Assembly (NCBI RefSeq): GCF_050920415.1
Contig: NZ_CP169309.1
Direction: 5' to 3' (one strand)
Length of the DNA stretch: 64,000 nt
Source of the DNA: Escherichia coli
GTDB lineage: Bacteria > Pseudomonadota > Gammaproteobacteria > Enterobacterales > Enterobacteriaceae
Below are positions 16,796-64,000 of the stretch, piece after piece; within the stretch, counting starts at the first letter, position 1, and each line of letters opens with the position of its first letter. The notes under the pieces are model-generated. The model made no database searches, was not told where the DNA came from, and was given only the letters and a program-made list of their open reading frames with translations. The translations under genes were made by a program, and so were the position numbers.

Positions 16796-17047
16796 AGCCA
16801 CAGCACAATGATCCATATTTATATTTTTTCTCCGGGTGGGTGATGCCAGTCGGCATGTTTTACCTACTTGTCTGCATGGTGACTCGTTGGCGAGAACAGA
16901 GGCGGAATTGGTTACAATTGTCCGGGAATTCTTGTTATTTTTTACTGTATTGTCGTGTCGGGTGATAGGACGTTAAGAATATCGCTGGATCTCGCCAGTG
17001 ACGTCTGTTTCTGCTACAGTGCCCGTTTTACGGCAAACGGCTTGGGT

Positions 17048-18043
17048 ATGGCTTCATTAAAGGATGTCGCACGCCTGGCGGGAGTGTCGATGATGACTGT
17101 CTCCCGGGTGATGCATAATGCAGAATCTGTGCGTCCTGCAACGCGTGACCGCGTATTGCAGGCAATCCAAACCCTGAATTATGTTCCTGATCTTTCCGCT
17201 CGTAAGATGCGCGCTCAGGGACGTAAGCCGTCGACTCTCGCCGTGCTGGCGCAGGATACTGCTACCACTCCTTTCTCTGTTGATATTCTGCTTGCCATTG
17301 AACAAACCGCCAGCGAGTTTGGCTGGAATAGTTTTTTAATCAATATTTTTTCTGAAGATGACGCTGCCCGCGCGGCACGTCAGCTGCTTGCCCTCCGTCC
17401 GGATGGCATTATCTATACTACAATGGGACTGAGGCATATCACGCTGCCTGAGTCTCTGCATGGTGAAAATATTGTATTGGCGAACTGTGTGGCGGATGAC
17501 CCAGCGTTACCCAGTTATATCCCTGATGATTACACTGCCCAATATGAAGCAACACAGCATTTGCTCGCGGCGGGCTATCGTCAACCGTTATGCTTCTGGC
17601 TACCGGAAGGTGCGTTGGCAACAGGGTATCGTCGGCAGGGATTTGAGCAGGCCTGGCGTGATGCTGGACGAGATCTGGCTGAGGTGAAACAATTTCACAT
17701 GGCCATAGGTGATGATCACTACACCGATCTCGCAAGTATACTCAATGCCCACTTCCAGTCTGGAAAACCAGATTTTGATGTTCTGATTTGTGGTAACGAT
17801 CGCGCAGCCTTTGTGGCTTATCAGGTTCTTCTGGCGAAGGGGGTACGTATCCCGCAGGATGTCGCCGTAATGGGCTTTGATAATCTGGTTGGCGTCGGGC
17901 ATCTGTTTTTACCGCCGCTGACCACAATTCAGCTTCCACATGACATTATCGGGCGGGAAGCTGCATTGCATATTATTGAAGGTCGTGAAGGGGGAAGGGT
18001 AACGCAGATCCCTTGCCCGCTGTTGCTCCGTTGTTCCACCTGA
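17048..18043 (+). CDS. cscR: LacI-family sucrose operon repressor CscR (start chosen at MASLKDVA)
   Basis: N-terminal LacI HTH plus periplasmic-binding-like domain. Confidence 0.8.
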   Translation: MASLKDVARLAGVSMMTVSRVMHNAESVRPATRDRVLQAIQTLNYVPDLSARKMRAQGRKPSTLAVLAQDTATTPFSVDILLAIEQTASEFGWNSFLINIFSEDDAARAARQLLALRPDGIIYTTMGLRHITLPESLHGENIVLANCVADDPALPSYIPDDYTAQYEATQHLLAAGYRQPLCFWLPEGALATGYRRQGFEQAWRDAGRDLAEVKQFHMAIGDDHYTDLASILNAHFQSGKPDFDVLICGNDRAAFVAYQVLLAKGVRIPQDVAVMGFDNLVGVGHLFLPPLTTIQLPHDIIGREAALHIIEGREGGRVTQIPCPLLLRCST

Positions 18044-18050
18044 TATTATG

Positions 18051-19493
18051 TTACCCCAGTTGCCAGAGTGCTCCATGTTGCAGCACGGCCACTCCGTGGG
18101 CGGCATAGAGCGACAGTTCCCGTTCTTCTGGCTGCGGATAGATTCGGCTACTCATCACAGCTTCCCCGTCGTTAATAAATACTTCCACGGATGATGTATC
18201 GATAAATATCCTTAGGGCGAGCGTGTCACGCTGCGGGAGGGGAATACTACGGTAACCATCTAAATTCTCGTGTGGGTAATACCGCCACAAAACAAGTCGC
18301 TCAGATTGGTTATCAATATACAGCCGCATTCCCGTGCCGAGCTGTAATCCGTAATGTTCGGCATCGCTGTTCTTCAGAGCCCAGTGCAACTGAATCTCAA
18401 CCGCTTGCGCGTTTTCCTGCAAAACATATTTGTTGCTGATTGTGTGGGGAGAGATTGATTGATGCTGCTGGCGTAACGACTCAGCTTCGTGTACCGGGCG
18501 TTGTAGGAGTTTGCCATTGCTCTCTGAAAGCTCGCGCGCCAGCGTCATGCAGCCTGCCCAGCCTTCACGTTTTGAGGGCATTGGCGATTCCCACATATCC
18601 ATCCAGCCGATAACAATACGCCGACCATCCTTCGCTAAAAAGCTTTGTGGTGCATAAAAGTCATGCCCATTATCAAGTTCAGTAAAATGCCCGGATTGTG
18701 CAAAAAGTCGTCCTGGCGACCATATTCCGGGTATTACACCACTTTGAAAGCGATTTCGATAATTGTATCCCTCGGCATTCATTCCCTGCGGGGAAAACAT
18801 CAGATAATGTTGATCGCCAAGGCTGAAAAAGTCCGGACATTCCCACATATAGCTTTCACCCGCATCAGCGTGGGCCAGTACGCGATCGAAAGTCCATTCA
18901 CGCAATGAACTGCCGCGATAAAGCAGGATCTGTCCCGTGTTGCCTGGGTCTTTCGCCCCGACTACCATCCACCAGGTGTCGGCTTCACGCCACACTTTAG
19001 GATCGCGGAAGTGCATGATTCCTTCTGGTGGAGTGAGGATCACACCTTGTTTCTCGAAATGAATACCATCCCGGCTGGTAGCCAGACATTGTACTTCACG
19101 AATTGCATCGTCATTACCTGCACCATCGAGCCAGACGTGGCCGGTGTAGATAAGTGAGAGGACACCATTGTCATCAACAGCACTACCTGAAAAACACCCG
19201 TCTTTGTCATTCTCGTCTCCTGGCGCTAGCGCAATAGGCTCGTGCTGCCAGTGGATCATATCGTCGCTGGTGGCATGTCCCCAGTGCATTGGCCCCCAGT
19301 GTTCGCTCATCGGGTGATGCTGATAAAACGCGTGATAACGATTGTTAAACCAGATCAGGCCGTTTGGATCGTTCATCCACCCGGCTGGAGGCGCGAGGTG
19401 AAAATGGGGATAAAAAGTATTCCCCCGGCGCTCGTGAAGTTTTGCTAGTGCGTTTTGCGCCGCATGCAATCGAGATTGCGTCATTTTAATCAT
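18051..19493 (-). CDS. cscA: sucrose-6-phosphate hydrolase / invertase CscA (GH32)
   Basis: GH32 motifs WMNDPNG, FRDP, WECPD. Confidence 0.85.
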   Translation of the reverse strand: MIKMTQSRLHAAQNALAKLHERRGNTFYPHFHLAPPAGWMNDPNGLIWFNNRYHAFYQHHPMSEHWGPMHWGHATSDDMIHWQHEPIALAPGDENDKDGCFSGSAVDDNGVLSLIYTGHVWLDGAGNDDAIREVQCLATSRDGIHFEKQGVILTPPEGIMHFRDPKVWREADTWWMVVGAKDPGNTGQILLYRGSSLREWTFDRVLAHADAGESYMWECPDFFSLGDQHYLMFSPQGMNAEGYNYRNRFQSGVIPGIWSPGRLFAQSGHFTELDNGHDFYAPQSFLAKDGRRIVIGWMDMWESPMPSKREGWAGCMTLARELSESNGKLLQRPVHEAESLRQQHQSISPHTISNKYVLQENAQAVEIQLHWALKNSDAEHYGLQLGTGMRLYIDNQSERLVLWRYYPHENLDGYRSIPLPQRDTLALRIFIDTSSVEVFINDGEAVMSSRIYPQPEERELSLYAAHGVAVLQHGALWQLG

Positions 19494-19518
19494 CCTGGTT
19501 AAGCAAATTTGGTGAATT

Positions 19519-19530
19519 GTTAACGTTAAC
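19519..19530. promoter_or_regulatory. perfect 12-bp palindrome GTTAACGTTAAC, candidate CscR operator 1
   Basis: Palindrome in cscA-cscK divergent intergenic region. Confidence 0.5.
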
Positions 19531-19563
19531 TTTTATAAAAATAAAGCCCCTTATCTTTATAAA

Positions 19564-19579
19564 TGTGATTAATATCACA
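19564..19579. promoter_or_regulatory. candidate CRP site TGTGA-N6-TCACA
   Basis: Perfect match to CRP consensus half-sites. Confidence 0.5.
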
Positions 19580-19582
19580 AAT

Positions 19583-19594
19583 GTTAACGTTAAC
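19583..19594. promoter_or_regulatory. second copy of GTTAACGTTAAC palindrome, candidate CscR operator 2
   Basis: Identical palindrome 64 bp from the first. Confidence 0.5.
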
Positions 19595-19699
19595 TATGAC
19601 GTTTTGTGATCGAATGTGCATGTTTTAGTAAATCCATGACGATTTTGCGAAAAAGAGGTTTATCACTATGCGTAAGTCAGATGAATTTGAGGGAAAAAA

Positions 19700-20614
19700 A
19701 TGTCAGCCAAAGTATGGGTTTTAGGGGATGCGGTTGTCGATCTCTTGCCTGAATCAGACGGGCGCCTACTGCCTTGTCCTGGCGGCGCGCCAGCTAACGT
19801 TGCGGTGGGAATCGCCAGATTAGGCGGAATAAGTGGGTTTATAGGCCGGGTGGGTGATGATCCTTTTGGCGCGTTAATGCAAAGAACGCTGCTAACGGAG
19901 GGAGTCGATATCACGTATCTGAAGCAGGATGAATGGCACCGAACATCCACGGTGCTTGTCGATCTGAACGATCAGGGGGAACGTTCATTTACGTTTATGG
20001 TCCGCCCTGGTGCCGATCTTTTTTTAGAGACGACTGACTTGCCCTTCTGGCGACATGGCGAATGGTTACATCTCTGTTCTATTGCGTTGTCTGCTGAACC
20101 TTCGCGTACCAGCGCATTTACTGCGATGACGGCGATCCGGCATGCCGGAGGTTTTGTCAGCTTCGATCCCAATATTCGTGAAGATCTGTGGCAAGACGAG
20201 CATTTGCTCCGCTTGTGTTTGCGACAGGCGCTACAACTGGCGGATGTCGTCAAGCTCTCGGAAGAAGAATGGCGACTTATCAGCGGAAAAACACAGAACG
20301 ATCGGGATATATGTGCTCTGGCAAAAGAGTATGAGATCGCCATGCTGTTGGTGACTAAAGGTGCAGAAGGGGTGGTGGTCTGTTATCGAGGACAAGTTCA
20401 CCATTTTGCTGGAATGTCTGTGAATTGTGTCGATAGCACGGGGGCGGGAGATGCGTTCGTTGCCGGGTTACTCACAGGTCTTTCCTCTACGGGATTAGAG
20501 ACCGATGAGAGAGAAATGCGACGAATTATCGATCTCGCTCAACGTTGTGGAGCGCTTGCAGTAACGGCGAAAGGGGCAATGACAGCGCTGCCATGTCGAC
20601 AAGATCTGGAATAG
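19700..20614 (+). CDS. cscK: fructokinase CscK (PfkB family)
   Basis: PfkB motifs GGAPANVA and DSTGAGDAF. Confidence 0.85.
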   Translation: MSAKVWVLGDAVVDLLPESDGRLLPCPGGAPANVAVGIARLGGISGFIGRVGDDPFGALMQRTLLTEGVDITYLKQDEWHRTSTVLVDLNDQGERSFTFMVRPGADLFLETTDLPFWRHGEWLHLCSIALSAEPSRTSAFTAMTAIRHAGGFVSFDPNIREDLWQDEHLLRLCLRQALQLADVVKLSEEEWRLISGKTQNDRDICALAKEYEIAMLLVTKGAEGVVVCYRGQVHHFAGMSVNCVDSTGAGDAFVAGLLTGLSSTGLETDEREMRRIIDLAQRCGALAVTAKGAMTALPCRQDLE

Positions 20615-20685
20615 TGAGAAATAAACGGCGAGGCCGTTCTTGTCTCTGAATAGGACGTGAATATTTTAACGACAGGCAGGTAATT

Positions 20686-21933
20686 ATGGCACTGAATATA
20701 CCATTCAGAAATGTGTACTATCGTTTTGCATCCAGTTACTCATTTCTCTTTTTTATTTCCTGGTCGCTGTGGTGGTCGTTATACGCTATTTGGCTGAAAG
20801 GACATCTAGGGTTGACTGGGACGGAATTAGGTACACTTTATTCGGTCAACCAGTTTACCAGTATTCTATTTATGATGGTCTACGGCATCGTCCAGGATAA
20901 ACTCGGTCTGAAGAAACCGCTTATCTGGTGTATGAGTTTCATCCTGGTCTTGACCGGACCGTTTATGATTTACGTTTATGAACCGTTACTGCAAAGCAAT
21001 TTTTCTGTAGGTCTAATTTTGGGGGCGCTCTTTTTTGGCTTGGGGTATCTGGCGGGCTGCGGTCTGCTTGATAGCTTCACCGAAAAAATGGCACGAAATT
21101 TTCATTTCGAATATGGAACAGCGCGCGCCTGGGGATCTTTTGGCTATGCGATTGGCGCGTTCTTTGCTGGCATATTTTTCAGTATCAGTCCCCATATCAA
21201 CTTCTGGTTGGTTTCGCTATTTGGCGCTGTATTTATGATGATCAACATGCGTTTTAAATATCAGGATCAGCAGTGCGTAGCGGCAGATGCGGGAGGGGTA
21301 AAAAAAGAGGATTTTATTGCAGTTTTCAAGGACCGAAACTTCTGGATTTTCGTCATATTTATTGTGGGGACGTGGTCTTTCTATAACATTTTTGATCAAC
21401 AGCTCTTTCCTGTTTTTTATGCAGGTTTATTCGAATCACACGATGTAGGAACGCGCCTGTATGGTTATCTCAACTCATTCCAGGTTGTACTCGAAGCGCT
21501 GTGCATGGCCATTATTCCTTTCTTTGTTAATCGGGTAGGGCCAAAAAATGCATTACTTATCGGTGTTGTGATTATGGCGTTGCGTATTCTTTCCTGCGCA
21601 CTGTTCGTTAATCCCTGGATTATTTCATTAGTGAAGCTTTTACATGCCATTGAGGTTCCACTGTGTGTCATTTCCGTCTTCAAATACAGCGTGGCAAACT
21701 TTGATAAACGCCTGTCGTCGACGATCTTTCTGATTGGTTTTCAAATTGCCAGTTCGTTGGGGATTGTGTTGCTTTCAACGCCGACTGGAATACTTTTTGA
21801 CCATGCAGGTTACCAGACGGTTTTCTTCGTAATTTCGGGTATTGTCTGCCTGATGTTGTTATTTGGCATTTTCTTCCTGAGTAAAAAACGTGAGCAAATG
21901 GTGATGGAAACGCCTGTACCTTCTGCAATATAG
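20686..21933 (+). CDS. cscB: sucrose:H+ symporter CscB (MFS, LacY-like)
   Basis: 415 aa 12-TMS MFS permease. Confidence 0.85.
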   Translation: MALNIPFRNVYYRFASSYSFLFFISWSLWWSLYAIWLKGHLGLTGTELGTLYSVNQFTSILFMMVYGIVQDKLGLKKPLIWCMSFILVLTGPFMIYVYEPLLQSNFSVGLILGALFFGLGYLAGCGLLDSFTEKMARNFHFEYGTARAWGSFGYAIGAFFAGIFFSISPHINFWLVSLFGAVFMMINMRFKYQDQQCVAADAGGVKKEDFIAVFKDRNFWIFVIFIVGTWSFYNIFDQQLFPVFYAGLFESHDVGTRLYGYLNSFQVVLEALCMAIIPFFVNRVGPKNALLIGVVIMALRILSCALFVNPWIISLVKLLHAIEVPLCVISVFKYSVANFDKRLSSTIFLIGFQIASSLGIVLLSTPTGILFDHAGYQTVFFVISGIVCLMLLFGIFFLSKKREQMVMETPVPSAI

Positions 21934-22363
21934 ACGTAAACTCTTTCCGGTTGTTGTCGATAGCTCTATATCCCTCAACCGGAAAATAATAATACCAAAA
22001 TGCTTAGCGCGGCTAATAATCGCCTAATCCAAACGCCTCATTCATGTTCTGGAACAGCCGCTCAAATGTACTCAGGATACGCGGTTCGCTGATTTCCAGG
22101 AAATTGTCGTAATTCAGCGACCTGTCCCGTGTATCACGGGCCTGCTAATCCATCAAGGAATGCATTGCGGAGTGAAGTATCGAGTCAAGCCAGATTTCGC
22201 GATCAGGATTCTGTGTGATGATTACATTGCCAGGCCCGGGGCTGTTTAGTCATCGCCGCACAGTGCTGAGATTTCAACCTGTTGCAGGGAAAATGAGTAG
22301 ATTTAGGGCAAGTGTGCTGCCAAACCCAACTTTTACGCGGGGAAGGTAGATTTCGTTGGAAGG

Positions 22364-22383
22364 ATAAATGGTGTCCCCTGCAG
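22364..22383. repeat. prophage att core, torI-proximal copy (ATAAATGGTGTCCCCTGCAG)
   Basis: Exact 20-bp direct repeat of 62521-62540, which covers the 3' end of argW. Confidence 0.8.
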
Positions 22384-22456: not shown

Positions 22457-22657
22457 TTACCCATTGGCGCGGCTTAAGAGCTTATTTTTGAATTCACAAT
22501 GGTCACGATATAACCATCTTGCTCGCCCGTGGATAACTTTGGCTTTTGGCAGGTCGCCGGACTTAATCCGGTCATAGATGAAGGTTTTACCAAAGCCAGT
22601 ATCGGCCATGATGAATTTCAAATCAACCAGTGAATCAGGCTGTAGTTCGTGTTGCAT
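22457..22657 (-). CDS. torI: TorI-like excisionase / recombination directionality factor (AlpA-Xis family)
   Basis: 66 aa; recognised as KplE1 TorI; sits at prophage end opposite the integrase. Confidence 0.8.
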   Translation of the reverse strand: MQHELQPDSLVDLKFIMADTGFGKTFIYDRIKSGDLPKAKVIHGRARWLYRDHCEFKNKLLSRANG

Positions 22658-32514: not shown

Positions 32515-34395
32515 ATGACGCCAAGTGAACTTAGCGACCTGCTTTGGGCGCAGGTTGACAGGGTGGCTCCGCACCTGTTGCCAAACGGCAAGAAAGAGGG
32601 GCATGAGTGGGTTGCCGGTAACGTCAACGGTGACAAGGGAAACAGCCTTAAGGTCAACCTTAGCGGCAAGAAAAAATGGGCTGATTTCGCTGAGGGAGAC
32701 GGCGGTGACATGCTTGATTTGTGGATGGCATGTCGTGGAATTAACCTGCATCAGGCTATGCAGGAAGCGAAAGCCTTTCTCGGTATCAAGGATGACGATC
32801 ACCATTTCGATGCCAAACGTGAGAAGAAATTCTCCAGACCTGATCGCAAGAAAATCGCCCGCTACGTTACCAGAACAGAATCCCATCTTGAGTACCTGCA
32901 ATCGCGTGGCATATCGCCAGAAGTCGTAAAGCGCTACGAGGTTGTCAGCGGCAAGGTGTGGAATGGAGAACGAGAACTTGATGCACTGGTGCTTCCGTAC
33001 AAACGCGATGGTGAGTTGTTGCAGGTCAAGCGAATCAGCACTGAGCGCCCGGACGGGAAGAAAGTCATTATGGCAGAAGGTGATTGTGAACCTTGTCTGT
33101 TCGGATGGCAGGCTCTGGACGCTGGCGTGAGGGCGGTTGTGCTTTGCGAAGGCGAAATTGATTGTATGAGCTATGCGCAATACGGCATCTCGGCGTTATC
33201 CGTGCCGTTTGGTGGAGGAAAAGGCGCTAAGCAGCAGTGGATTGAGTTTGAGTATCACAACCTCGACAGGTTTGAGGAAATATTCATCTCGATGGACGTT
33301 GATGATGTTGGTCGTGAAGCCGCAAGGGAAATCGCAAGCCGACTCGGTGAACATCGTTGCCGTCTTGTTACTCTGCCGTACAAAGACATCAACGAATGCC
33401 TGATGAACGGTGTTACCGAGGATGAAATCTGGCAGTACATCGGCACGGCATCCTACTTCGATCCTGAAGAACTCTACAGCGCGCGAGAGTTTTACCAGGA
33501 CACTATCAACGCTTTCTACGGCAAGCAGCAGTATCTATTTAATCCACCGTGGGAATCTCTGGCAGATAAATTCCAGTTCCGTGAGGCCGAGTTGACGCTG
33601 GTCAATGGTGTGAACGGTCACGGAAAAACGGAGGTTGTCGGGCATATGGCACTTGAGGCAATGCGTCAGGGTGTGAAGACGTGCATCGCGTCACTTGAGC
33701 TGAAGCCTGGTATTCTCCTTAAGCGCCTTACCCGTCAGGCAACGTGCTGCAAGATGCCGCCAGTGCTTGAAATTGACTCTGCATTTAAATTCTATGACGA
33801 AAGACTTTGGGTGTTTGGCCTGACCGGAACGGCGAAAGCCGACAGGTTGATCGAAATATTCGACTACGCTCGCCGCCGATACGGCATCCAGTTATTCATC
33901 ATCGACAGCCTGATGAAATGCGGCATAGGTGACGATGACTATAACGGGCAGAAAGCATTTGTTGACTCGATTTGCGACTTCAAAAACAAAACAAACTCCC
34001 ACGTCATTCTCGTTACTCACTCCAGAAAAGGAGACAGCGAAGAAAAACCAACCGGGAAAATGGACGTAAAAGGCTCTGGAGCGATAACAGACCTGACAGA
34101 CAACCTTTTCATCATCTGGCGTAACAAGGCTCGCGAGAGAGCGTTACAGAGAGTTCAGAGTGGTGAAAAGATGTCAGAGAAGGACGAACAGCTACTGGCA
34201 TCTCCGGCATCTGTTTTGATGCTTGAAAAACAACGTAACGGCGAAGGTTGGGAAGGTGGTGTCCCGTTGTTCCTTGACGAGCAATCGCACCAGTTCCTGC
34301 AACTTGAATCAGGATCGCCTTATAGCTACATCGCCAATATGCCGAAATCGGAATATGACGAGGCGTGGCGACAGGAAAACGTGACGGAGTATTAA
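32515..34395 (+). CDS. primase (toprim) / DnaB-like helicase fusion replication protein
   Basis: 626 aa; toprim-like VVLCEGEIDCMSY, Walker A GVNGHGKT, Walker B-like LFIIDSL. Confidence 0.65.
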   Translation: MTPSELSDLLWAQVDRVAPHLLPNGKKEGHEWVAGNVNGDKGNSLKVNLSGKKKWADFAEGDGGDMLDLWMACRGINLHQAMQEAKAFLGIKDDDHHFDAKREKKFSRPDRKKIARYVTRTESHLEYLQSRGISPEVVKRYEVVSGKVWNGERELDALVLPYKRDGELLQVKRISTERPDGKKVIMAEGDCEPCLFGWQALDAGVRAVVLCEGEIDCMSYAQYGISALSVPFGGGKGAKQQWIEFEYHNLDRFEEIFISMDVDDVGREAAREIASRLGEHRCRLVTLPYKDINECLMNGVTEDEIWQYIGTASYFDPEELYSAREFYQDTINAFYGKQQYLFNPPWESLADKFQFREAELTLVNGVNGHGKTEVVGHMALEAMRQGVKTCIASLELKPGILLKRLTRQATCCKMPPVLEIDSAFKFYDERLWVFGLTGTAKADRLIEIFDYARRRYGIQLFIIDSLMKCGIGDDDYNGQKAFVDSICDFKNKTNSHVILVTHSRKGDSEEKPTGKMDVKGSGAITDLTDNLFIIWRNKARERALQRVQSGEKMSEKDEQLLASPASVLMLEKQRNGEGWEGGVPLFLDEQSHQFLQLESGSPYSYIANMPKSEYDEAWRQENVTEY

Positions 34396-34421
34396 ATGAC
34401 CATCTACATCACTGAGCTAAT

Positions 34422-34452
34422 AAAAGGCCTGCTGGTAATCGCAGGCCTTTTT
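34422..34452 (+). terminator. tR2-like intrinsic terminator before ninB
   Basis: AAAAGGCCTGC-loop-GCAGGCCTTTTT perfect inverted repeat with flanking A/T runs. Confidence 0.55.
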
Positions 34453-34472
34453 ATTTGGGGGAGAGGGAAGTC

Positions 34473-34913
34473 ATGAAAAAACTAACCTTTGAAATTCGAT
34501 CTCCGGCACATCAGCAAAACGCTATTCACGCGGTACAGCAAATCCTTCCAGACCCAACCAAGCCAATCGTAGTGATCATTCAGGAGCGCAACCGCAGCTT
34601 AGACCAGAATCGGAAGCTTTGGGCTTGCCTTGGTGACGTCTCTCGTCAGGTTGAATGGCATGGGCGTTGGCTGGATGCAGAAAGCTGGAAGTGTGTGTTT
34701 ACCGCAGCATTAAAGCAGCAGGATGTTGTTCCTAACCTTGCCGGGAATGGCTTTGTGGTAATAGGCCAGTCAACCAGCAGGATGCGTGTAGGCGAATTTG
34801 CGGAGCTATTAGAGCTTATACAGGCATTCGGTACAGAGCGTGGCGTTAAGTGGTCAGACGAAGCGCGACTGGCTCTCGAATGGAAAGCGCGATGGGGAGA
34901 TCGGGCTGCATGA
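34473..34913 (+). CDS. ninB: NinB (Orf recombination mediator)
   Basis: MKKLTFEIRSPAHQQNAIHAVQQILPD near-identical to remembered lambda NinB. Confidence 0.85.
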   Translation: MKKLTFEIRSPAHQQNAIHAVQQILPDPTKPIVVIIQERNRSLDQNRKLWACLGDVSRQVEWHGRWLDAESWKCVFTAALKQQDVVPNLAGNGFVVIGQSTSRMRVGEFAELLELIQAFGTERGVKWSDEARLALEWKARWGDRAA

Positions 34914-35437
34914 CTATCAAATCAAATACGCCAGCACACGACAAGGACTGCTGGCAAACGCCGCTTTGGCTTTTTGATGCACTGGATATTGAGTTTGGAT
35001 TCTGGCTGGATTCGGCAGCGAGCGACAAAAACGCTCTGTGCGCTCACTGGCTAACTGAGGCCGACGACGCGCTCAATTCTGAGTGGGTAAGCCACGGTGC
35101 AATCTGGAATAACCCACCGTACAGCAATATCAGGCCGTGGGTGGAAAAAGCCGCTGAGCAGTGTATACAACAGCGACAGACGGTAGTGATGCTTGTGCCA
35201 GAGGATATGTCAGTCGGATGGTTCAGCAAGGCTCTGGAGAGTGTCGACGAAGTTCGTATTATCACTGATGGACGGATTAATTTTATCGAACCATCGACAG
35301 GGCTAGAGAAGAAGGGAAACAGCAAAGGTTCCATGCTGCTGATTTGGCGACCGTTCATCAGTCCTCGACGGATGTTTACTACCGTATCCAAAGCGGCATT
35401 GATGGCGATCGGGCAGGGCGTCAGGAGGGCGGCATGA
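34910..35437 (+). CDS. phage DNA N6-adenine methyltransferase (orphan, Dam-like)
   Basis: 175 aa from ATG overlapping ninB stop; NPPY catalytic motif. Confidence 0.65.
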
Positions 35438-35616
35438 GACGACAGCGACGAAGTATCACCGACATAATCTGCGAAAACTGCAAATACCTTCCAACGAAGC
35501 GCTCCAGAAATAAACGCAAGCCAATCCCAAAAGAATCTGACGTAAAAACCTTCAACTACACGGCTCACCTGTGGGATATCCGGTGGCTTAGAGAACGTGC
35601 GAGGAAAATAAGGTGA
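35434..35616 (+). CDS. ninE: NinE
   Basis: [27 protein letters not shown] matches remembered lambda NinE. Confidence 0.75.
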
Positions 35617-35783
35617 TTGACCCAAATCGAAGTTACGAACAAGAAAGCGTAGAGCGGGCTTTAACGTGCGCTAACTGCGGTCAGAAGCTGCATGTGCTTG
35701 AAGTTCACGTGTGTGAGCACTGCTGCGCAGAACTGATGAGCGATCCGAATAGCTCAATGTACGAGGAAGAAGACGATGAATGA
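35613..35783 (+). CDS. ninF: NinF (GTG start)
   Basis: [56 protein letters not shown] resembles lambda NinF; below ORF-track cut-off. Confidence 0.6.
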
Positions 35784-36498
35784 GTTAATAAATGGCAATG
35801 CTATCAAAATGACAAGCATTGAAATCGCTGAGTTGGTGGGTAAGCGTCAAGACAATGTGAAACGTACCATCGAAACGCTGGCTAAAAATGGTGTTATCCG
35901 GCTTCCTCAAATTGAGGTTTCCGAAAGAATCAATAACTTAGGGTTCAATGTTCAGTACGAGCATTACGTCTTCGAAGGCGAACAAGGTAAGCGAGACAGT
36001 ATTGTCGTTGTTGCCCAGTTGTCGCCGGAATTCACCGCTCGTCTTGTTGACCGTTGGCGAGAGCTTGAGGAAACTGCGGTTAATATCCCCAAAACGCTAC
36101 CAGAAGCGTTGCGCCTTGCTGCTGATCTTGCTGAGCAGAAAATGCAACTGGAAAACCAGCTCGCAATTGCCGCACCTAAAGTTGAGTTTGCCGATCGCGT
36201 TGGCGAGGCCAGCGGAATTTTGATTGGAAACTTTGCAAAGGTTGTCGGTATTGGTCCAAACAAACTGTTTGCGTGGATGCGTGATCACAAAATCCTTATT
36301 GCTTCAGGTTCCCGGCGCAATGTGCCAATGCAGGAATATATGGATCGCGGCTATTTCACAGTGAAAGAAACAGCGGTCAACACAAATCACGGAATACAGA
36401 TATCGTTCACCACAAAAATCACCGGGCGTGGTCAACAGTGGCTGACCAGAAAGCTGCTCGATAACGGAATGCTGAAAGTAACAGGGGAGGCTGCTTAA
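35776..36498 (+). CDS. Rha-family phage regulatory / antirepressor-like protein
   Basis: 240 aa; N-terminal Rha-like domain; position in nin region. Confidence 0.55.
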   Translation: MNELINGNAIKMTSIEIAELVGKRQDNVKRTIETLAKNGVIRLPQIEVSERINNLGFNVQYEHYVFEGEQGKRDSIVVVAQLSPEFTARLVDRWRELEETAVNIPKTLPEALRLAADLAEQKMQLENQLAIAAPKVEFADRVGEASGILIGNFAKVVGIGPNKLFAWMRDHKILIASGSRRNVPMQEYMDRGYFTVKETAVNTNHGIQISFTTKITGRGQQWLTRKLLDNGMLKVTGEAA

Positions 36499-36788
36499 TG
36501 GCTAACCTACGCAAAGAAGCGCGCAACAGAGAATGCCAGGTACGTATTTACGGCGTATGCAATGGCAATCCTGAAACTACAGTTCTGGCACATTACCGGA
36601 TGGCTGGAATTTGCGGAACGGGAATGAAACCTGACGACCTGATCGGCGCATGGGCTTGTAGTGACTGCCACGCGGAGATCGACCGACGCACAAGGATTCT
36701 CGACAACAAAGACGCCAGACTTTACCACCTCGAAGGCGTGATAAGGACGCAGGCGATACTGCTGAAGGAGGGGAAGATTAAGCCATGA
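36498..36788 (+). CDS. NinX-like protein (Cys-rich)
   Basis: 96 aa with CxxC and CxxxxH; nin-region position. Confidence 0.5.
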   Translation: MANLRKEARNRECQVRIYGVCNGNPETTVLAHYRMAGICGTGMKPDDLIGAWACSDCHAEIDRRTRILDNKDARLYHLEGVIRTQAILLKEGKIKP

Positions 36789-37146
36789 ACGAATATCAGT
36801 TTGTGCTTCCATACCCGCCGTCGCTGAACACCTACTGGCGAAGACGGGGAGTCAATACTACATCAGCGATAAAGGCCAGAAATACCGAAAAGACGTTCAG
36901 CAAATCATCCGCCAACTTAAGTTAGACATTTTCACCAAATCACGACTCCGCATCAAAGTCATCGCAGACGTTCCAGACTCCCGCCGCCGCGACCTCGATA
37001 ACATCCTGAAGGGTTTACTCGACTCCCTTATCCACGCCGGATTTGCGGAAGACGACGAGCAATTCGATGACATTCGCGTAATTCGTGGTGTGAAAGTACC
37101 AGGCGGACGGCTTGGAATAAAAATCACCGAACTGGAGAACGTATGA
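36785..37146 (+). pseudogene. rusA: RusA-family Holliday junction resolvase, interrupted by a frameshift near 36845-36850
   Basis: Frame 1 gives MNEYQFVLPYPPSLNTYWRRRG then a stop at 36923; the +2 frame continues SQYYISDKGQKYR...DSRRRDLDNILKGLLD...GGRLGIKITELENV to 37146; G-run at junction. Confidence 0.7.
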
Positions 37147-37331
37147 ACGCCACAATTCAAACGATACCAGAGCTTCTTATCCAGACACGAGGCAATCAGA
37201 CCGAAGTGGCGAGGATGCTTTCCTGCGCAAGAGGAACAGTGCTCAAGTACAACCGAGACAGCAAAGGCGAGCGTCACGTAATAGTTAACGGCGTCCTGAT
37301 GGTCAAACAGGGCAAAAGGGGAAGGCCATGA
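37143..37331 (+). CDS. ninH: NinH-like protein
   Basis: IPELLIQTRGNQTEVARMLSCARGTVLKY resembles lambda NinH. Confidence 0.7.
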   Translation: MNATIQTIPELLIQTRGNQTEVARMLSCARGTVLKYNRDSKGERHVIVNGVLMVKQGKRGRP

Positions 37332-37951
37332 GACTAGAAAGCGTAGCTAAATTTCATTCGCCAAAAAGCCCGATGATGAGTGACTCACCACGGGCCACGG
37401 CTTCTGACTCTCTTTCCGGTACTGATGTGATGGCTGCTATGGGGATGGCGCAATCACAAGCCGGATTCGGAATGGCTGCATTCTGTGGTAAGCACGAACT
37501 CAGCCAGAACGACAAACAAAAGGCTATCAACTATCTGATGCAATTTGCACACAAGGTATCGGGGAAATACCGGGGTGTGGCAAAGCTCGAAGGAAATACT
37601 AAGGCAAAGGTACTGCAAGTGCTCGCAACATTCGCTTATGCTGATTATTGCCGTAGTGCCGCGACGCCGGGCGCAAGATGCAGAGATTGCCACGGTACAG
37701 GCCGTGCGGTTGATATAGCCAAAACAGAGCAGTGGGGGAGAGTTGTTGAGAAAGAGTGCGGAAGATGCAAAGGTGTCGGCTATTCAAGAATGCCAGCAAG
37801 CGCTGCATATCGCGCTGTAACGATGCTAATCCCAAACCTTACCCAACCCACCTGGTCACGCACTGTTAAGCCGCTGTATGACGCTCTGGTGGTGCAATGC
37901 CACAAAGAAGAGTCAATCGCAGACAACATTTTGAATGCGGTCACACGTTAG
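37328..37951 (+). CDS. Q: late-gene antiterminator Q, lambda type
   Basis: 207 aa, matches remembered lambda Q including zinc-finger cysteines. Confidence 0.9.
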   Translation: MRLESVAKFHSPKSPMMSDSPRATASDSLSGTDVMAAMGMAQSQAGFGMAAFCGKHELSQNDKQKAINYLMQFAHKVSGKYRGVAKLEGNTKAKVLQVLATFAYADYCRSAATPGARCRDCHGTGRAVDIAKTEQWGRVVEKECGRCKGVGYSRMPASAAYRAVTMLIPNLTQPTWSRTVKPLYDALVVQCHKEESIADNILNAVTR

Positions 37952-37993
37952 CAGCATGATTGCCACGGATGGCAACATATTAACGGCATGATA

Positions 37994-38022
37994 TTGACTT
38001 TTTGAATAAAGTTGGGTAAATT
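37994..38022 (+). promoter_or_regulatory. late promoter pR' (-35 TTGACT, -10 TAAATT, 17-bp spacer) with qut region
   Basis: Near-identical to remembered lambda pR' sequence. Confidence 0.65.
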
Positions 38023-38058
38023 TGACTCAACGATGGATAAATGCACTCGTTAAATAAA

Positions 38059-38085
38059 GCCCTGAGTTAATAGCTGGGGCTTTTT
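38059..38085 (+). terminator. hairpin plus T5 downstream of pR' (candidate tR')
   Basis: GCCCTG...CTGGGGC stem followed by TTTTT. Confidence 0.4.
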
Positions 38086-38383
38086 GCGTTTTAAGCACGA
38101 CCTTTCTGAAAGCGCATCAAACCAAATACCAGACAGACCAAAATAATCACCTTATCCGCTGTGGCTACGGTGCGGTGTGCTTTGCATAAAAGAAAACCAG
38201 CTCAATGGCTGGCTTCGTGAAAGCGGGTGGCAAGAGGTTGCGCTAACAACCTCATGCCGTTTTGCCCGTGCATATCGGTCACGAACAAATCTGATTACTA
38301 AACACAGTAGCCTGGATTTGTTCTATCAGTAATCGACCTTATTCCTAATTAAATAGAGCAAATCCCCTTATTGGGGGTAAGAC

Positions 38384-38707
38384 ATGAAGATGCCAGAAAA
38401 ACATGACCTGTTAGCCGCCATTCTCGCGGCAAAGGAACAAGGCATCGGGGCAATCCTTGCGTTTGCAATGGCGTACCTTCGCGGCAGATATAATGGCGGT
38501 GCGTTTACAAAAACAGTAATCGACGCAACGATGTGCGCCATTATCGCCTGGTTCATTCGTGACCTTCTCGACTTCGCCGGACTAAGTAGCAATCTCGCTT
38601 ATATAACGAGCGTGTTCATCGGCTACATCGGTACTGACTCGATTGGTTCGCTTATCAAACGCTTCGCTGCTAAAAAAGCCGGAGTAGAAGATGGTGGAAA
38701 TCAATAA
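38384..38707 (+). CDS. S: holin/antiholin S (dual-start MKMPEK)
   Basis: 107 aa, matches lambda S. Confidence 0.95.
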
Positions 38708-39167
38708 TCAACGTAAGGCGTTCCTCGATATGCTGGCGTGGTCAGAGGGAACTGATAACGGACGTCAGAAAACCAGAAATCATGGTTATGACGTCATTGT
38801 AGGCGGGGGGCTATTCACTGATTACTCCGATCACCCTCGCAAACTTGTCACGCTAAACCCCAAACTCAAATCAACAGCAGCCGGACGTTACCAGCTTCTT
38901 TCCCGTTGGTGGGATGCCTACCGCAAGCAGCTTGGCCTGAAAGACTTCTCTCCGAAAAGTCAGGACGCTGTGGCATTGCAGCAGATTAAGGAGCGTGGCG
39001 CTTTGCCGATGATTGATCGCGGTGATATTCGTCAGGCAATCGACCGTTGCAGCAATATCTGGGCTTCACTGCCGGGCGCTGGTTATGGCCAGTTCGAGCA
39101 TAAGGCTGACAGCCTGATTGCAAAATTCAAAGAAGCAGGCGGAACGGTTAGAGAGATTGAGGTATGA
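38691..39167 (+). CDS. R: endolysin R (lytic transglycosylase)
   Basis: 158 aa, matches lambda R. Confidence 0.95.
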
Positions 39168-39601
39168 GCAGAGTCACCGCGATTATCTCCGCTCTGATTA
39201 TCTGCATCGTCGTCTGTCTGTCATGGGCGGTCAATCATTACCGTGATAACGCCATCGCCTACAAAGAACAGCGCGATAAGGCCGCATCCACAATCGCTGA
39301 CATGCAGAAGCGTCAACGTGATGTAGCAGAACTTGACGCCAGATACACAAAGGAGCTTGCTGATGCTAATGCGACTATCGAAAGTCTCCGTGCTGATGTT
39401 TCTGCTGGTCGTAAGCGCCTGCAAGTCGCCGCCACCTGTGCAAAGTCAACGACCGGAGCCAACAGCATGGGCGATGGAGAAAGCCCAAGACTTACAGCAG
39501 ATGCTGAACTCAATTATTACCGTCTCAGAAGTGGAATCGACAAGATAACCGCGCAGGTTAACTACCTGCAGGAATACATCAGGACGCAATGCCTGAAATG
39601 A
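39164..39601 (+). CDS. Rz: i-spanin Rz
   Basis: 145 aa; N-terminal TM then coiled coil; lambda Rz-like. Confidence 0.85.
39333..39548 (+). CDS. Rz1: o-spanin Rz1 lipoprotein embedded in Rz (+1 frame); true start probably an internal Met
   Basis: Lipobox LVVSAC followed by Pro-rich segment. Confidence 0.55.
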
Positions 39602-39635
39602 TGGGCGATGAAAACCAAAAAACAGGAGCAATACA

Positions 39636-39910
39636 TGACTAAGCTTTATCACCGCATCTCAACTTTTCTCTCTGGGTGCTGGGCGTTTATCACGTCTATT
39701 TCGTTCGCCATCTTTAGTTTCGGTAGCACAGCATGCTCGCTTAGTCGGGGTATGTGGCGTGCTATTTCAGCACTAGCGCCGAAATTTTTACCTGAAAAGG
39801 CTGTTTGGCGAATTGTAGAGCGAATGTGTAGTGAGAGCGTTCGCGAGAAGATTAACGTATTTGGGCGTCATCCTCGAAATACAGGCGCATTGTGCAGTTC
39901 GTTACTGTAG
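39636..39910 (+). CDS. small hypothetical membrane protein, 91 aa
   Basis: ATG with AGGAG SD 6 nt upstream; hydrophobic N-terminus. Confidence 0.35.
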
Positions 39911-40449
39911 TCATTACAAAGCCCATCAATGGGTGGGCTTGATAATGAAACCGGAATTTATTCTGGGCCACCAGTTAACGGCAGTACAGCGAAACAACCC
40001 AAGCCAGTAAGTGGGGAAATAACACTGGCAGCCACTGAAAGATGAACCTCCTGCCTTATGGCAAAAAAGATTCTTTGTGGTGGCGGACTGATGGAAAGAC
40101 ATCCACTGAATCGATGATAAACAAGTGGAATAGGTTGCGATGGTTTCCGTGAACAAAGATCCGAAGGAAGGCGTTGAATACATCACTGGTGCTGATGGTG
40201 TGAAAAGGCCAATGGCTTATTACAAAGCTGCTGAAGAGAGGGCAAGAATGGAAAATCCCCCTAAATGCGGATCATTTTTCGACATGCTGGACCTTCAATG
40301 GAAGTTGTGAACAACTAACAGGTCGCTCAGGCGGCCTTTTTTATTGCCATCACAAAAGCCATTCCCTACATAGTGGCTTTGATAATGGCTTATACCCTAC
40401 ACGGGATAACTTAACTGATATCCCTTTTAACGGATAAACGGAGCCAACA

Positions 40450-40692
40450 ATGGCAGAGATTATTCCCATGACTGAAGAACAGAAGTTCAAGTTAGAAATT
40501 TACCGACTGCTATCTAAGAACAATTCAGCGGCAGAGGAAGCTTTTGCATTCATTGGTGCTGACCAACTGAAACTGGAATTGTTCAAGTTGCACTACAACG
40601 ATGGCGGTGCAAATCCAGACTTCACATCTCGCACTATCGAAGCGGTGCGTAAATCGAAGGAAGCGTTAGACCTGTTCACTACCGGAGCATAA
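40450..40692 (+). CDS. hypothetical protein upstream of terminase, 80 aa
   Basis: ORF with plausible start. Confidence 0.45.
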   Translation: MAEIIPMTEEQKFKLEIYRLLSKNNSAAEEAFAFIGADQLKLELFKLHYNDGGANPDFTSRTIEAVRKSKEALDLFTTGA

Positions 40693-40771
40693 ACATGGCA
40701 ACTCAAGGTTTCGACAACCCATCCAAATTCCGCGATGAATGGGATAAGCAAGCAGAAGGGAAATAATCAAT

Positions 40772-41260
40772 ATGGCAGCACCAAAGGGCAACCGATTTTG
40801 GGAGGCCCGCAGTAGTCATGGGCGAAATCCTAAATTCGAATCGCCTGAGGCGCTGTGGGCTGCTTGTTGTGAATACTTCGAGTGGGTGGAAGCTAACCCG
40901 CTATGGGAGATGAAGGCGTTCTCGTATCAGGGTGAAGTAATACAAGAGCCTATCGCCAAGATGCGAGCGATGACCATTACCGGCCTCACTCTGTTCATTG
41001 ATGTGACGCTTGAAACATGGCGCACATATCGCCTGCGAGAAGATTTATCTGAAGTCGTTACGCGAGCAGAACAGGTCATCTACGACCAGAAATTCTCTGG
41101 CGCAGCCGCTGACCTTCTCAACGCTAACATCATCGCCCGTGATTTGGGCCTCAAAGAGCAGTCGCAAGTTGAAGACGTGACACCTGATAAGGGAGATCGC
41201 GATAAGCGGCGCTCTCGTATCAAGGAGCTATTCAACCGTGGAACTGGACGCGATTCTTGA
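40772..41260 (+). CDS. terminase small subunit (P22 gp3 type)
   Basis: 162 aa, recognised as P22 gp3. Confidence 0.85.
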
Positions 41261-56537: not shown

Positions 56538-57439
56538 ATAAAGAAGATGGCTTTAAGTGCTCCTTCTGCTGAAAGCCTCAGCATGAATGTGCAATGTTGA
56601 TTCGCGCTAAAGCAGAGATATTTATCTGTAATGGTTGTGTATCTCTTTGCGTTGAAGCGATGGGGAAAGAGTTAAATTCTAGAAAAACAATGTTAGATGT
56701 GAGCATAAAACAGTGAAGCCCCAACTGCGGTAACAGTCAGGGCTTCGGTATCAACAAAACTTACGAGGTATTATTGATATGTCAAGCTTAGCAAAGTCAA
56801 CTGTAAATTGCACTAATAGCATCATCATTTCTGACGTCAAGATTCATATGGATTCAGAGGGTCGTTACTCGCTTAATGACCTTCATGTAGCGTCTGGAAA
56901 GGAGGAAAAACATCAGCCAGCTTTCTTCATGCGTAGAAATGAAACTATTGAATTGATTAATGAAATTTTTAATTCTGCGGATATGCAGAATAAGAATCCC
57001 GTCATTTCTAAGAAAGGTAGATATGGTGGAACATACGTGTGCAAGGAGCTTGTTTACTCCTACGCCATGTGGATTAGCGCAGCATTTGCGCTGAAGGTTA
57101 TCCGCGCATATGACGCAATGGTTACTGCCACACAAGAGAGGAAGGCTATTGGCGGTAAAACTTCAGTAGCTGAACGCACGCCGCTACGCGATGCAGTAAA
57201 CATGCTGGTAGGAAAGAAAGGACTTCGCTATGACGATGCATACAATATGGTTCATCAGCGTTTTGGTATTGACAGCATTGATGAACTTTCAATTGAACAA
57301 ATCCCGCTGGCCGTAGAGTACATCCACAGGGTAGTGCTTGAAGGTGAGTAGACTGGCCCCCTGAATCTCCAGACAACCAGTATCACTTAAATAAGTGATA
57401 GTCTTAATACTAGTTTTTAGACTAGTCATTGGAGAACAG

Positions 57440-57805
57440 ATGATTGATGTCTTAGGGCCGGAGAAACGCAGACGGCGTACCACACAGGAAAAGATCGCAA
57501 TTGTTCAGCAGAGCTTTGAACCGGGGATGACGGTCTCCCTCGTTGCCCGGCAACATGGTGTAGCAGCCAGCCAGTTATTTCTCTGGCGTAAGCAATACCA
57601 GGAAGGAAGTCTTACTGCTGTCGCCGCCGGAGAACAGGTTGTTCCTGCCTCTGAACTTGCTGCCGCCATGAAGCAGATTAAAGAACTCCAGCGCCTGCTC
57701 GGCAAGAAAACGATGGAAAATGAACTCCTCAAAGAAGCCGTTGAATATGGACGGGCAAAAAAGTGGATAGCGCACGCGCCCTTATTGCCCGGGGATGGGG
57801 AGTAA
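57440..57805 (+). CDS. insC: IS2 transposase OrfA
   Basis: [26 protein letters not shown] recognised. Confidence 0.9.
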
Positions 57806-58668
57806 GCTTAGTCAGCCGTTGTCTCCGGGTGTCGCGTGCGCAGTTGCACGTCATTCTCAGACGAACCGATGACTGGATGGATGGCCGCCGCAGTCGTCAC
57901 ACTGATGATACGGATGTGCTTCTCCGTATACACCATGTTATCGGAGAGCTGCCCACGTATGGTTATCGTCGGGTATGGGCGCTGCTTCGCAGACAGGCAG
58001 AACTTGATGGTATGCCTGCGATCAATGCCAAACGTGTTTACCGGATCATGCGCCAGAATGCGCTGTTGCTTGAGCGAAAACCTGCTGTACCGCCATCGAA
58101 ACGGGCACATACAGGCAGAGTGGCCGTGAAAGAAAGCAATCAGCGATGGTGCTCTGACGGGTTCGAGTTCTGCTGTGATAACGGAGAGAGACTGCGTGTC
58201 ACGTTCGCGCTGGACTGCTGTGATCGTGAGGCACTGCACTGGGCGGTGACTACTGGCGGCTTCAACAGTGAAACAGTACAGGACGTCATGCTGGGAGCGG
58301 TGGAACGCCGCTTCGGCGACGATCTTCCGTCGTCTCCAGTGGAGTGGCTGACGGATAATGGTTCATGCTACCGGGCTAATGAAACACGCCAGTTCGCCCG
58401 GATGTTGGGACTTGAACCGAAGAACACGGCGGTGCGGAGTCCGGAGAGTAACGGAATAGCAGAGAGCTTCGTGAAAACGATAAAGCGTGACTACATCAGT
58501 ATCATGCCCAAACCAGACGGGTTAACGGCAGCAAAGAACCTTGCAGAGGCGTTCGAGCATTATAACGAATGGCATCCGCATAGTGCGCTGGGTTATCGCT
58601 CGCCACGGGAATATCTGCGGCAGCGGGCTTGTAATGGGTTAAGTGATAACAGATGTCTGGAAATATAG
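57763..58668 (+). CDS. insD: IS2 transposase OrfB (DDE domain)
   Basis: 301 aa recognised as IS2 InsD. Confidence 0.9.
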
Positions 58669-59105
58669 GGGCAAATCCAGTGAGTTCATTGGCAAACAAG
58701 AGAAGAAAACCAACGAGCTTTCTGCAAAAGAAGCAAACAGCCTTGTATGGTTATGGGATTATGCCAACCGCTCACAGGCATTATTCCGCGAATTGTATCC
58801 GGCATTAAAACAAATTCAATCGAACTATTCCGGCAGATGTCATGACTGCGGTTATGAGTTCTCCCGTATTATCGATATAGCGAGAGACGTTTTAATTAAT
58901 CACACACGAGATGTTGATATCAATGAGCCAGACGGACCAACGAATCTTTCCGCATGGATGAGACTTAAGAATAAAGAATTACCTCCTTCAGTACATAATT
59001 ACTGACAGATAACCAACGCAACGACCCAGCTTCGGCTGGGTTTTTTTATGCCCAAAATTCACCGTAGCCATGCTGCGGCGATTCCTTGTATCTGGAGCAA
59101 ATTAA

Positions 59106-61063
59106 ATGACAGACATTACAGCCAATGTTGTAGTGAGCATGCCTTCGCAACTCTTTACTATGGCCCGCTCTTTTAAAGCCGTAGCTAATGGTAAAATTTA
59201 TATCGGTAAAATTGACACTGACCCGGTAAATCCTGAAAACCAGATTCAGGTTTATGTAGAGAACGAAGACGGCTCTCACGTTCCTGTTTCGCAACCAATC
59301 ATCATTAACGCTGCTGGATATCCGGTATATAACGGACAGATTGCCAAATTCGTAACTGTGCAAGGCCATTCTATGGCTGTATATGATGCGTATGGTGCAC
59401 AGCAGTTCTATTTTCCTAATGTGCTGAAGTATGACCCTGATCAGTTTAAGCAGCAGTTAGAAAGCGATGCTGATGGAATGGGAGATGCATTAGTTACAGT
59501 TAAACAACCGTACACTGGTGCTACTTCTATTTCACAGCACATTAAAAATTCACAGGCTATAAGTGTTATTGATTTTGGCGCTACAATTGACGGAACGCTT
59601 CACCCTTTAAGCGAGATATTTTCAACACTATCAGCCGCTCAGATGGTATATCCATTTGTTTCATCTCTATCTCAATCTGTTGATTATGCTGCGCTTCAGT
59701 CCGCATGTAACACGGGAAAAACAGTGCTTATTCCAAAGGGAACTGGTTACTATAATTCAACTATTTTTCTGAAAAACTCCGTCAGGATTGTTGGAGAGGG
59801 AACTGATACAATAAATAGAGCGCAATCATTTATGTCTATTGTTGGTAATATTTCAGCCTTTGCTTTAGATCAAGGTGATTCACTATCGACAAAAATGATT
59901 CAGATTTTTATTGATGGTCTTTATATTTTCTATGATCCAGGAACCACACCAACGAATCCTGAAGATGATGGTGGGAAAATTGCATTTAATTTCTACTCGA
60001 CAATTCCAAATTCAACAAGCTTGGAAATGTCTGAAATTAAAAACTGTACAGTTCATGGTGCATGGTCATGCTTTAATGATCAGACTGGCACATACTTGAC
60101 AAAACTTACGAATGTGTGGGCCAGAAACTGCCATAATGGTTTTACAAAAGGAACTGGCACTACCATTCTGATGGAAAGATGTTATACATCTGGATGTATA
60201 TCACCATATCAGTTTGGTTCTGTCTTTGCAGCTACAATGATTAACTGTGCCATGGATGGATCAAATATTTCGTTAAACGCAGGTTCGCTTGGTGGGGCTG
60301 GCGTTCATGTTCTTAACACACATAGTTTTAACATTATTGGTTTTGATGCGGAGGGTAACACCATCTCTACAGATGGTTATGGAGAGGCAGCACTATTCCA
60401 TTTCGAAAATAGTAGTGGTGGCATTTCTGGCCTGACTGCACATCAGAACAGCATGCGAAGTGTTGCGCCAAGTGATGCTGGTGTAGTTTCCTACATCAGG
60501 GCGTCAGGTAGCAGCGATGTAAAATTGAGTCATCAGAAGATGATTTATCTGACACCAACACAGTTGCATATACTGGGTCTGGGTATCCCATCATGCTACA
60601 TGCAACTGACACAGCTAAAATAAGCGTCTTTAATAGCAGATTCAGGGCGACTACCACTGGTACCCCTGTCTTAAGTACGCTAAGTACTGGTGATGTATCA
60701 TGGTATGACTGCCCTAAAAAAACAGGACTTATCGTAGATGGTTATTCACAAATAACATCTAAGGAAGGATTGCAAACATCATGCTTCTATACCAGTAAAG
60801 GCTCTACTGCTGTTGCTGAAAATACTCCGACAACACTTTTCTCTCTACCAGATTCGCAAGGTACTTACATTATTAGCGTATGGGGGGCTGGAAGCGGAGA
60901 AAATTACGCATCTACACAACTGGCAATGTATGATGGAGATAAGCTAATTCTTGTTGCGTTAAAAATAGCAGCATTTCTTAGTTTTTCAGCAACAGGGAGA
61001 ATTGTAACCATTACAAGCCAGGGCACAGGCACTTTTAATTGGACCTACACAAAAATAGGTTAA
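59106..61063 (+). pseudogene. tailspike (P22 gp9-type head-binding N-terminus) split into two overlapping ORFs, 59106-60623 and 60593-61063; apparent frameshift
   Basis: N-terminus [34 protein letters not shown] matches P22 tailspike head-binding domain; second frame is open from 60512 with no SD-preceded start. Confidence 0.6.
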
Positions 61064-62400: not shown

Positions 62401-62520
62401 TTTTTACCCGTCATGGTGTGCGGCTGTCAACGATCTGACGCGAACCATGACGAACTGTGAATCTACGGAAGGCTTGATATTCAGGGGATTTTGCGGACTG
62501 GTACGGATGGGAGCGAACTG

Positions 62521-62540
62521 ATAAATGGTGTCCCCTGCAG
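62521..62540. repeat. prophage att core, integrase/argW-proximal copy
   Basis: Exact repeat of 22364-22383. Confidence 0.8.
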
Positions 62541-62600
62541 GAATCGAACCTGCAATTAGCCCTTAGGAGGGGCTCGTTATATCCATTTAACTAAGAGGAC
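62526..62600 (-). tRNA. argW: tRNA-Arg (argW)
   Basis: Reverse strand reads GTCCTCTTAGTTAAATGGATATAACGAGCCCCTCCTAAGGGCTAATTGCAGGTTCGATTCCTGCAGGGGACACCA, 75 nt with T-arm and CCA end. Confidence 0.9.
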
Positions 62601-62675
62601 AATGCGGCATGAGTATACCCGCTAATGCTCAGCGGGGTAAGTACACTGCCGCTCGATTGCTTAAACCCTCGCCAT

Positions 62676-63608: not shown

Positions 63609-63902
63609 GGTCTCTTCTCTTGAATTAGCACGTATAGCTAAAGCGTAGCGGCTTTTTTGCTCGCAACTGGCGGGAGTTACTCTGAAAATGTAGAAAAGGC
63701 TGTGTTTGCCTTTTTCTGTTTCTATAGAATCAAGTAGCCTACAGGGCGTCGATTACCAGGCTATGATCAAATCAGCAAATCAGGGCGTCTGGACATCAGT
63801 TGACGTGCTGTTACAATCGCCCACACCTAAACAGGCGGATACGGTATCGTTCCGTCATGGATGGCAAACTGCATAAGCCATAAAAAAAACAGGGAGACAT
63901 TT

Positions 63903-64000
63903 ATGAAGCTTCGCCTGTCGGCGCTTGCTCTTGGAACTACGCTTCTGGTGGGGTGTGCGAGTTCCGGTACAGATCAGCAAGGGCGTTCTGACCCATTAGA
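63903..64000 (+). CDS. mlaA: MlaA (VacJ) lipoprotein, 5' fragment; continues past window end
   Basis: MKLRLSALALGTTLLVGCASSGTDQQGRSDP with lipobox LVGC; AGGGAGA SD. Confidence 0.8.
   Translation, partial: MKLRLSALALGTTLLVGCASSGTDQQGRSDPL

Follow-up and report, generated by a model that had tools for sequence, protein, structure and literature searches.

The window analysed here, a stretch of 64,000 nucleotides from Escherichia coli (NCBI RefSeq contig NZ_CP169309.1), raises a twofold question: does it contain a broken rusA gene, and if so, does the break belong to the bacterium or to its assembly? The segment 36785–37146 is the rus/rusA gene, coding for a putative Holliday-junction resolvase and frameshifted as written. 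Frame 1 opens at the ATG at 36785 (+ strand) and reads MNEYQFVLPYPPSLNTYWRRRG, followed by 24 unrelated residues and the stop codon TAG at 36923–36925, which makes an ORF of 46 amino acids. The rest of the gene lies in frame 3 (offset +2, or -1 relative to the start), which reads SQYYISDKGQKYRK...DSRRRDLDN...ITELENV up to the stop codon TGA at 37144–37146, and can also be spelled SQYYISDKGQKYRKDVQQ...ADVPDSRRRDLDNILKG...GFAEDDEQ...ITELENV. No single uninterrupted rusA ORF of ~120 codons is present at this position, the frame switching after codon 22. The parts of the gene are the following:

36785–36850, + strand: rusA codons 1–22 (M1–G22) in frame 1, with 22 of 22 residues equal to those of the intact common RusA.
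36846–36849, + strand: run of four G (G4) from which one G was lost, the ancestral G5 reading CGGGGGAGT, according to DNA alignments.
36851–36925, + strand: out-of-frame tail of the 46-aa product (VNTTSAIKARNTEKTFSKSSANLS), ending in TAG at 36923–36925.
36850–37146, + strand: rusA codons 23–120 and the TGA stop in the -1 frame, including all the catalytic residues.

The Rus proteins of HK620 and Louie align to the window DNA in two frames, residues 1–22 at 95% and residues 11–120 at 90% identity, an agreement far beyond chance. When one base was added to the window sequence at the G run, the repaired RusA of 120 aa matched the Pfam family RusA (PF05866) over profile positions 1–123 of 124, with 60.9 bits (cut-off 22.8) and E = 2.4e-16, and aligned with PDB 1Q8R in a gap-free and collinear manner over residues 1–119 (E = 3e-26). 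The repaired protein is also 100% identical to a RusA that at least 1000 contigs carry and that has UniRef K7PKF0_9CAUD among its source names. In the gap-free alignment, D70, D72, K76, and D90/D91 occupy identical positions in 1Q8R and in the downstream rusA frame, where their codons are at 36991–36993, 36997–36999, 37009–37011, and 37051–37056, respectively. These residues are critical for cleavage and cation binding in E. coli RusA (PMC1636454). The first-pass annotation had described a RusA-like gene split across two frames, with 22 N-terminal codons in one and ~98 C-terminal codons, including the catalytic D-RRRDLDN segment, in the other. The frame reads, the two-frame alignment to HK620 and Louie, Pfam, and 1Q8R all bear this out: the split is exactly 22 + 98, and D70, D72, K76, and D90–D91 are all in the downstream frame.

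As for what could be made from the gene, the truncated 46-aa product has no Pfam match, and the downstream frame contains no ATG, GTG, or TTG until 18 codons before its stop, which is why no ORF was listed for it. Because of the change of frame, the 46-aa product without a Pfam match, and the lack of a downstream start, rusA is a pseudogene as written; and since the catalytic Asp and Lys residues are never translated (stop at 36925), no resolvase would be made from it. Separate translation of the C-terminal part of RusA was also considered, and ruled out on the same scarcity of ATG, GTG, and TTG codons.

The genes next to rusA are intact:

36498–36788, + strand: intact ybcO-like gene (DUF1364; PF07102, 143 bits), whose exact protein is found on 50 contigs.
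37143–37331, + strand: intact ninH, whose ATG overlaps the rusA stop codon.
37328–37951, + strand: intact gene for the late antiterminator Q.

The order in the window is a Roi/Ant-like gene, ybcO-like, rusA, ninH, and Q, so that rusA has its lambdoid nin-region context, with the ybcO-like gene upstream and ninH and Q downstream; the order ybcO-like, rusA, ninH, and Q is also seen in HK97, HK620, and one E. coli prophage. The TGA of the ybcO-like gene overlaps the ATG of rusA in an ATGA junction, and the rusA stop overlaps the ATG of ninH. In lambdoid phages, as known from the biology of lambda and P22, transcription of the nin region is antiterminated. Given this antitermination and the GGAG upstream of the ninH ATG, ninH and Q should still be expressed.

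Among the known relatives, the rus (gp67) genes of HK620, HK97, HK022, and mEpX1 share with the window gene its position, its ATGA overlaps, and 97–98% DNA identity over 551 nt, but they are single ORFs of 120 codons, whereas the window gene lies in two frames. The RusA of E. coli K-12, encoded by the cryptic prophage DLP12 (PDB 1Q8R, 2H8C, and 2H8E), is a diverged paralogue of the window gene and a different allele. While the K-12 gene is intact yet transcriptionally silent (PMC1636454), the window copy sits in a normal nin operon and is frameshifted.

To locate the lesion, ten contigs were compared, namely those encoding a Roi protein identical to that of the window. In all ten, rusA is intact (363 nt, 120 codons), against 362 nt in the window, and nine of the ten have the sequence CGGGGGAGT; the closest relatives carry G5, where the window reads CGGGGAGT, with G4. 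Two independent assemblies, the NCBI draft AEXD01000007.1 and a metagenome scaffold (L011), show 0 mismatches to the window over the 2176 nt from roi through ybcO, rusA, and ninH to Q, and one gap, which is the missing rusA G. In the DNA alignment, the G-run site reads CGGGGGAGTC in E. coli 0H26, MGGGGAAGCC in HK97 and HK620, and CGGGGAGTC in the window. Because all the relatives are one base longer, and these two assemblies are otherwise identical to the window, G5 is the ancestral state and the window has lost one G. A 1-bp indel had already been proposed as the cause, with alignment to intact rusA genes as a way to check it, and this proves right: a single base pair has been deleted, the nearest alleles having G5 where the window has G4, and every relative compared here is longer than the window by exactly one base at this point. 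The switch does take place at the G run, but not over the span 36845–36850 first given for it, since the run is 36846–36849, four G between C36845 and A36850.

The G4 allele is private to the window sequence. A 70-nt query centred on the G-run site matched 849 places (779 records, 775 complete E. coli genomes), all of them 71 nt long; none of the 849 has the deleted allele, and none reaches 99% identity. By the same criterion, the deleted allele is absent from the 47 matching phage records of INPHARED. Searches with an exact, slightly degenerate pattern of the deleted form gave 0 matches in IMG/VR, the GTDB species representatives, and JGI metagenome contigs, and a collection of 15 billion predicted proteins does not contain the 46-aa product. 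A literature search for reports of a rusA frameshift or pseudogene returned nothing specific. With a one-base homopolymer deletion that only one assembly has, in a gene without other faults, and with further single-base deletions beside it, the window resembles pseudogenes that stem from long-read consensus errors or from prophage decay.

The gene lies within a prophage integrated at a tRNA gene:

22384–62540, no strand assigned: HK620/P22-like prophage of 40.2 kb at argW, recognised by a 21-bp att repeat, an empty site, and gene order.
62526–62600, - strand: tRNA-Arg(CCU) gene argW, the attachment site of the prophage.

The 21-bp att direct repeat, GATAAATGGTGTCCCCTGCAG, is found at 22363–22383 and 62520–62540 and overlaps the 3' end of tRNA-Arg(CCU). 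The prophage has P22-like head genes, and its layout and gene order are as in HK620 and Louie. Genes for an IntS-type integrase (61207–62400, - strand) and a TorI-like excisionase (22457–22657, - strand) are at opposite ends of the prophage, and attP would therefore be between int and xis, as in the HK620 annotation; the lambda order (xis-int-attP) is different. The flanks, 1–22383 and 62520–64000, are 100% identical, without gaps, to E. coli NZ_CP169399.1 (strain MFDS1022581), the closest chromosome to them, in which the argW site is empty. For this reason, the prophage was gained or lost very recently in the lineage. No near-clonal genome with the same prophage was found, and the prophage is mosaic, without a full-length near-identical relative. 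Outside the prophage, a sucrose-utilisation cluster (cscA, cscB, a PfkB-type kinase gene, and probably a LacI-type regulator gene) occupies 16955–21933, between dsdA and argW. In some other strains, this interval holds a LysR-type regulator and a GntP-family permease in place of the csc cluster, the dsdA–argW interval being a known variable region.

As to the origin of the missing base, we favour, at a probability of roughly 55%, a consensus error that was left uncorrected in the source assembly and would be no property of the bacterium. The loss in rusA belongs to a set of at least four private single-base deletions in the prophage, of which three fall in a 2.8-kb stretch of the nin-Q-lysis module; this module is of a kind often present in multiple copies per E. 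coli genome. Short-read polishing would tend to fail in such repeated modules and leave residual deletions, and the true rusA would be intact and identical to the common allele. The three further deletions are the following:

38075–38076, + strand: second private 1-bp deletion (AGCT[C]GGGGC), in the hairpin/T-run of the Q–S intergenic region.
39602–39603, + strand: third private 1-bp deletion (TGAT[C]GGGCG), 1–2 bases after the Rz stop codon.
60520–60521, + strand: fourth 1-bp deletion (GATG[T]TAAAA), in the tailspike gene.

The deletions at 38075 and 39602 came to light in a comparison with AEXD01000007.1, L011, and the scaffold L018; among records of complete E. coli genomes, they are shared by 0 of 256 and 0 of 46 full-length matches, respectively. 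All four deletions are at the 5' edge of a homopolymer (GGGGG, GGGG, GGG, and AAAA), and in three of them the length of the run is kept and the base preceding it is lost, which is no classical slippage signature. Compared over 35787–40690 (4.9 kb) with L018, a near-identical independent scaffold, the window shows two substitutions and three single-base gaps, all of them deletions in the window. Indels make up ~10% of spontaneous mutations in E. coli, according to mutation-accumulation work, and by our own calculation, which assumes this share, at least three indels among five differences would arise with p ~0.01. Three private deletions for only two substitutions over 4.9 kb is an excess that tips the balance towards residual consensus error, and with three further private single-base deletions nearby, an error of this kind becomes a serious possibility for rusA. 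The median number of matches per genome for an 8-kb query (33000–41000) spanning the nin-Q-lysis module was 2, which fits a repeat that is difficult to polish; repeats are where the short-read polishing of long-read assemblies leaves errors. We infer the technical origin of the deletions, next to what was directly observed, namely the identity of the gene, the deletion, its privacy, the clustering, and the bias towards deletions. A separate observation was made at 38809, in the endolysin gene, where the window has a run of six G (GCGGGGGGC) and L011 has GGGGAG; as this is a substitution that leaves the length unchanged, the longer G runs of the nin-Q-lysis module are not length-shifted.

A credible alternative, to which we give somewhat less than even odds, is that the deletion is real and represents a recent, strain-specific loss of rusA function, one of several lesions in a decaying prophage, the others being an IS2 insertion in ant, the tailspike frameshift, and the two non-coding deletions. 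The lysogen can do without RusA, and the phage draws only a modest benefit from it, so that losing it would be tolerated. In favour of this alternative, an IS2-like element of the IS3 family (57349–58679, 1331 bp) interrupts the P22-type antirepressor gene ant and is flanked by a 5-bp target duplication, GTGAG, at 57344–57348 and 58680–58684. Its orfA (57395–57805) and orfB (57763–58668) overlap, as is usual in the IS3 family, which has its own -1 frameshift, and the N-terminal ant fragment stops at a TAG provided by the end of the IS. As this insertion is genuine, the prophage would be a resident one that accumulates real lesions.

The fourth deletion bears on the same alternative. The P22-type tailspike gene (59106–61063) is split by the deletion at 60520 into ORFs of 505 and 156 aa, the site reading GATGTTAAAATT in E. 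coli ETEC1730, where the gene is intact (652 aa), and GATGTAAAATT in the window. The two fragments are separate NCBI proteins (XVM74075.1 and XVM74076.1), recorded on a single contig. Full-length matches to the tailspike DNA occur in only five complete genomes, and a failure to polish repeats therefore explains this deletion less easily. Also on the side of a real mutation, comparison with independent assemblies shows no indels in the flanks or in most of the prophage. The flanks (22,383 + 1,481 nt, with 139 homopolymers of at least 5) do not differ from the independent complete genome NZ_CP169399.1; no indels were found in 11.2 kb of head genes compared with a 98.8% relative (136 substitutions, 0 gaps), nor in the 2.2 kb where window and L011 are identical, nor in 2.9 kb of early-left genes. 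With no indels in the flanks or in ~16 kb of prophage DNA elsewhere, the assembly is generally accurate.

Three features of the rusA lesion and its neighbours fit a real event as well: slippage is plausible at a G5 run, the lack of any amino-acid change downstream of the frameshift fits a very recent event, and of the three deletions in the cluster, two fall outside coding sequence and the other hits a gene that can be spared, as selection would leave them. Three others speak for the consensus error instead. Three private single-base deletions to two substitutions in these 4.9 kb differ widely from the spectrum usual for spontaneous mutation, two of the deletions take a lone C and do not shorten the run, and none of the other assemblies and protein sets searched contains the G4 allele.

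If all four deletions were real, they could also represent a burst of -1 frameshift mutagenesis limited to the prophage DNA, which we consider improbable. One candidate source would be synthesis of the Pol IV (DinB) type during SOS induction or abortive replication of the prophage. Pol IV is known to produce -1 events at G runs, and also to drop the base before a run through dNTP-stabilised misalignment. Such a burst would constitute a local mutational signature, with deletions and without substitutions. In a weaker variant, the G4 allele may be leaky through slippage at G GGA, traces of wild-type RusA still being made.

The least tenable proposal is that the frameshift is compensated in expression, with -1 ribosomal or transcriptional slippage restoring full-length RusA in a programmed or usefully leaky manner, and we regard it as scarcely credible. 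In the ribosomal variant, tRNA-Gly would slip -1 from GGA (36848–36850) onto GGG (36847–36849). A -1 shift at CGG GGA would indeed recreate the exact wild-type R21-G22-S23, and the site is preceded by CGA AGA CGG, rare Arg codons that could slow ribosomes. However, the X XXY YYZ heptamer is absent, the zero frame being AGA CGG GGA GTC, in which only a single-tRNA re-pairing at G GGA is possible; the 80 nt at 36851–36930 fold at -4.5 kcal/mol (z = +0.82), with 163 of 200 shuffles at least as stable; and four G are too short for efficient transcriptional slippage. Furthermore, a single frame is present in all 849 E. coli places and in all the phage records, the two-frame arrangement being seen in no homologue examined, and since the sequence around the site does not differ from that of intact rusA, nothing has evolved there to promote shifting. 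With no slippery heptamer, no downstream structure, and no conservation, we reject programmed or compensated frameshifting.

The gene affected is a well-known one, and the lesion is trivial, private, and one base long, and may not exist in the organism. Whether error or mutation, it is of little matter and advances no open question. Should the deletion be a consensus error, as we favour, the regions at 35.8–40.7 kb and 60.5 kb of the window would be unsuited for pseudogene calls before a read check. Should it be real, one E. coli strain would have lost a dispensable prophage resolvase, and the prophage, its tailspike being split as well, would be unable to yield infectious particles, which would be a case of routine prophage decay.
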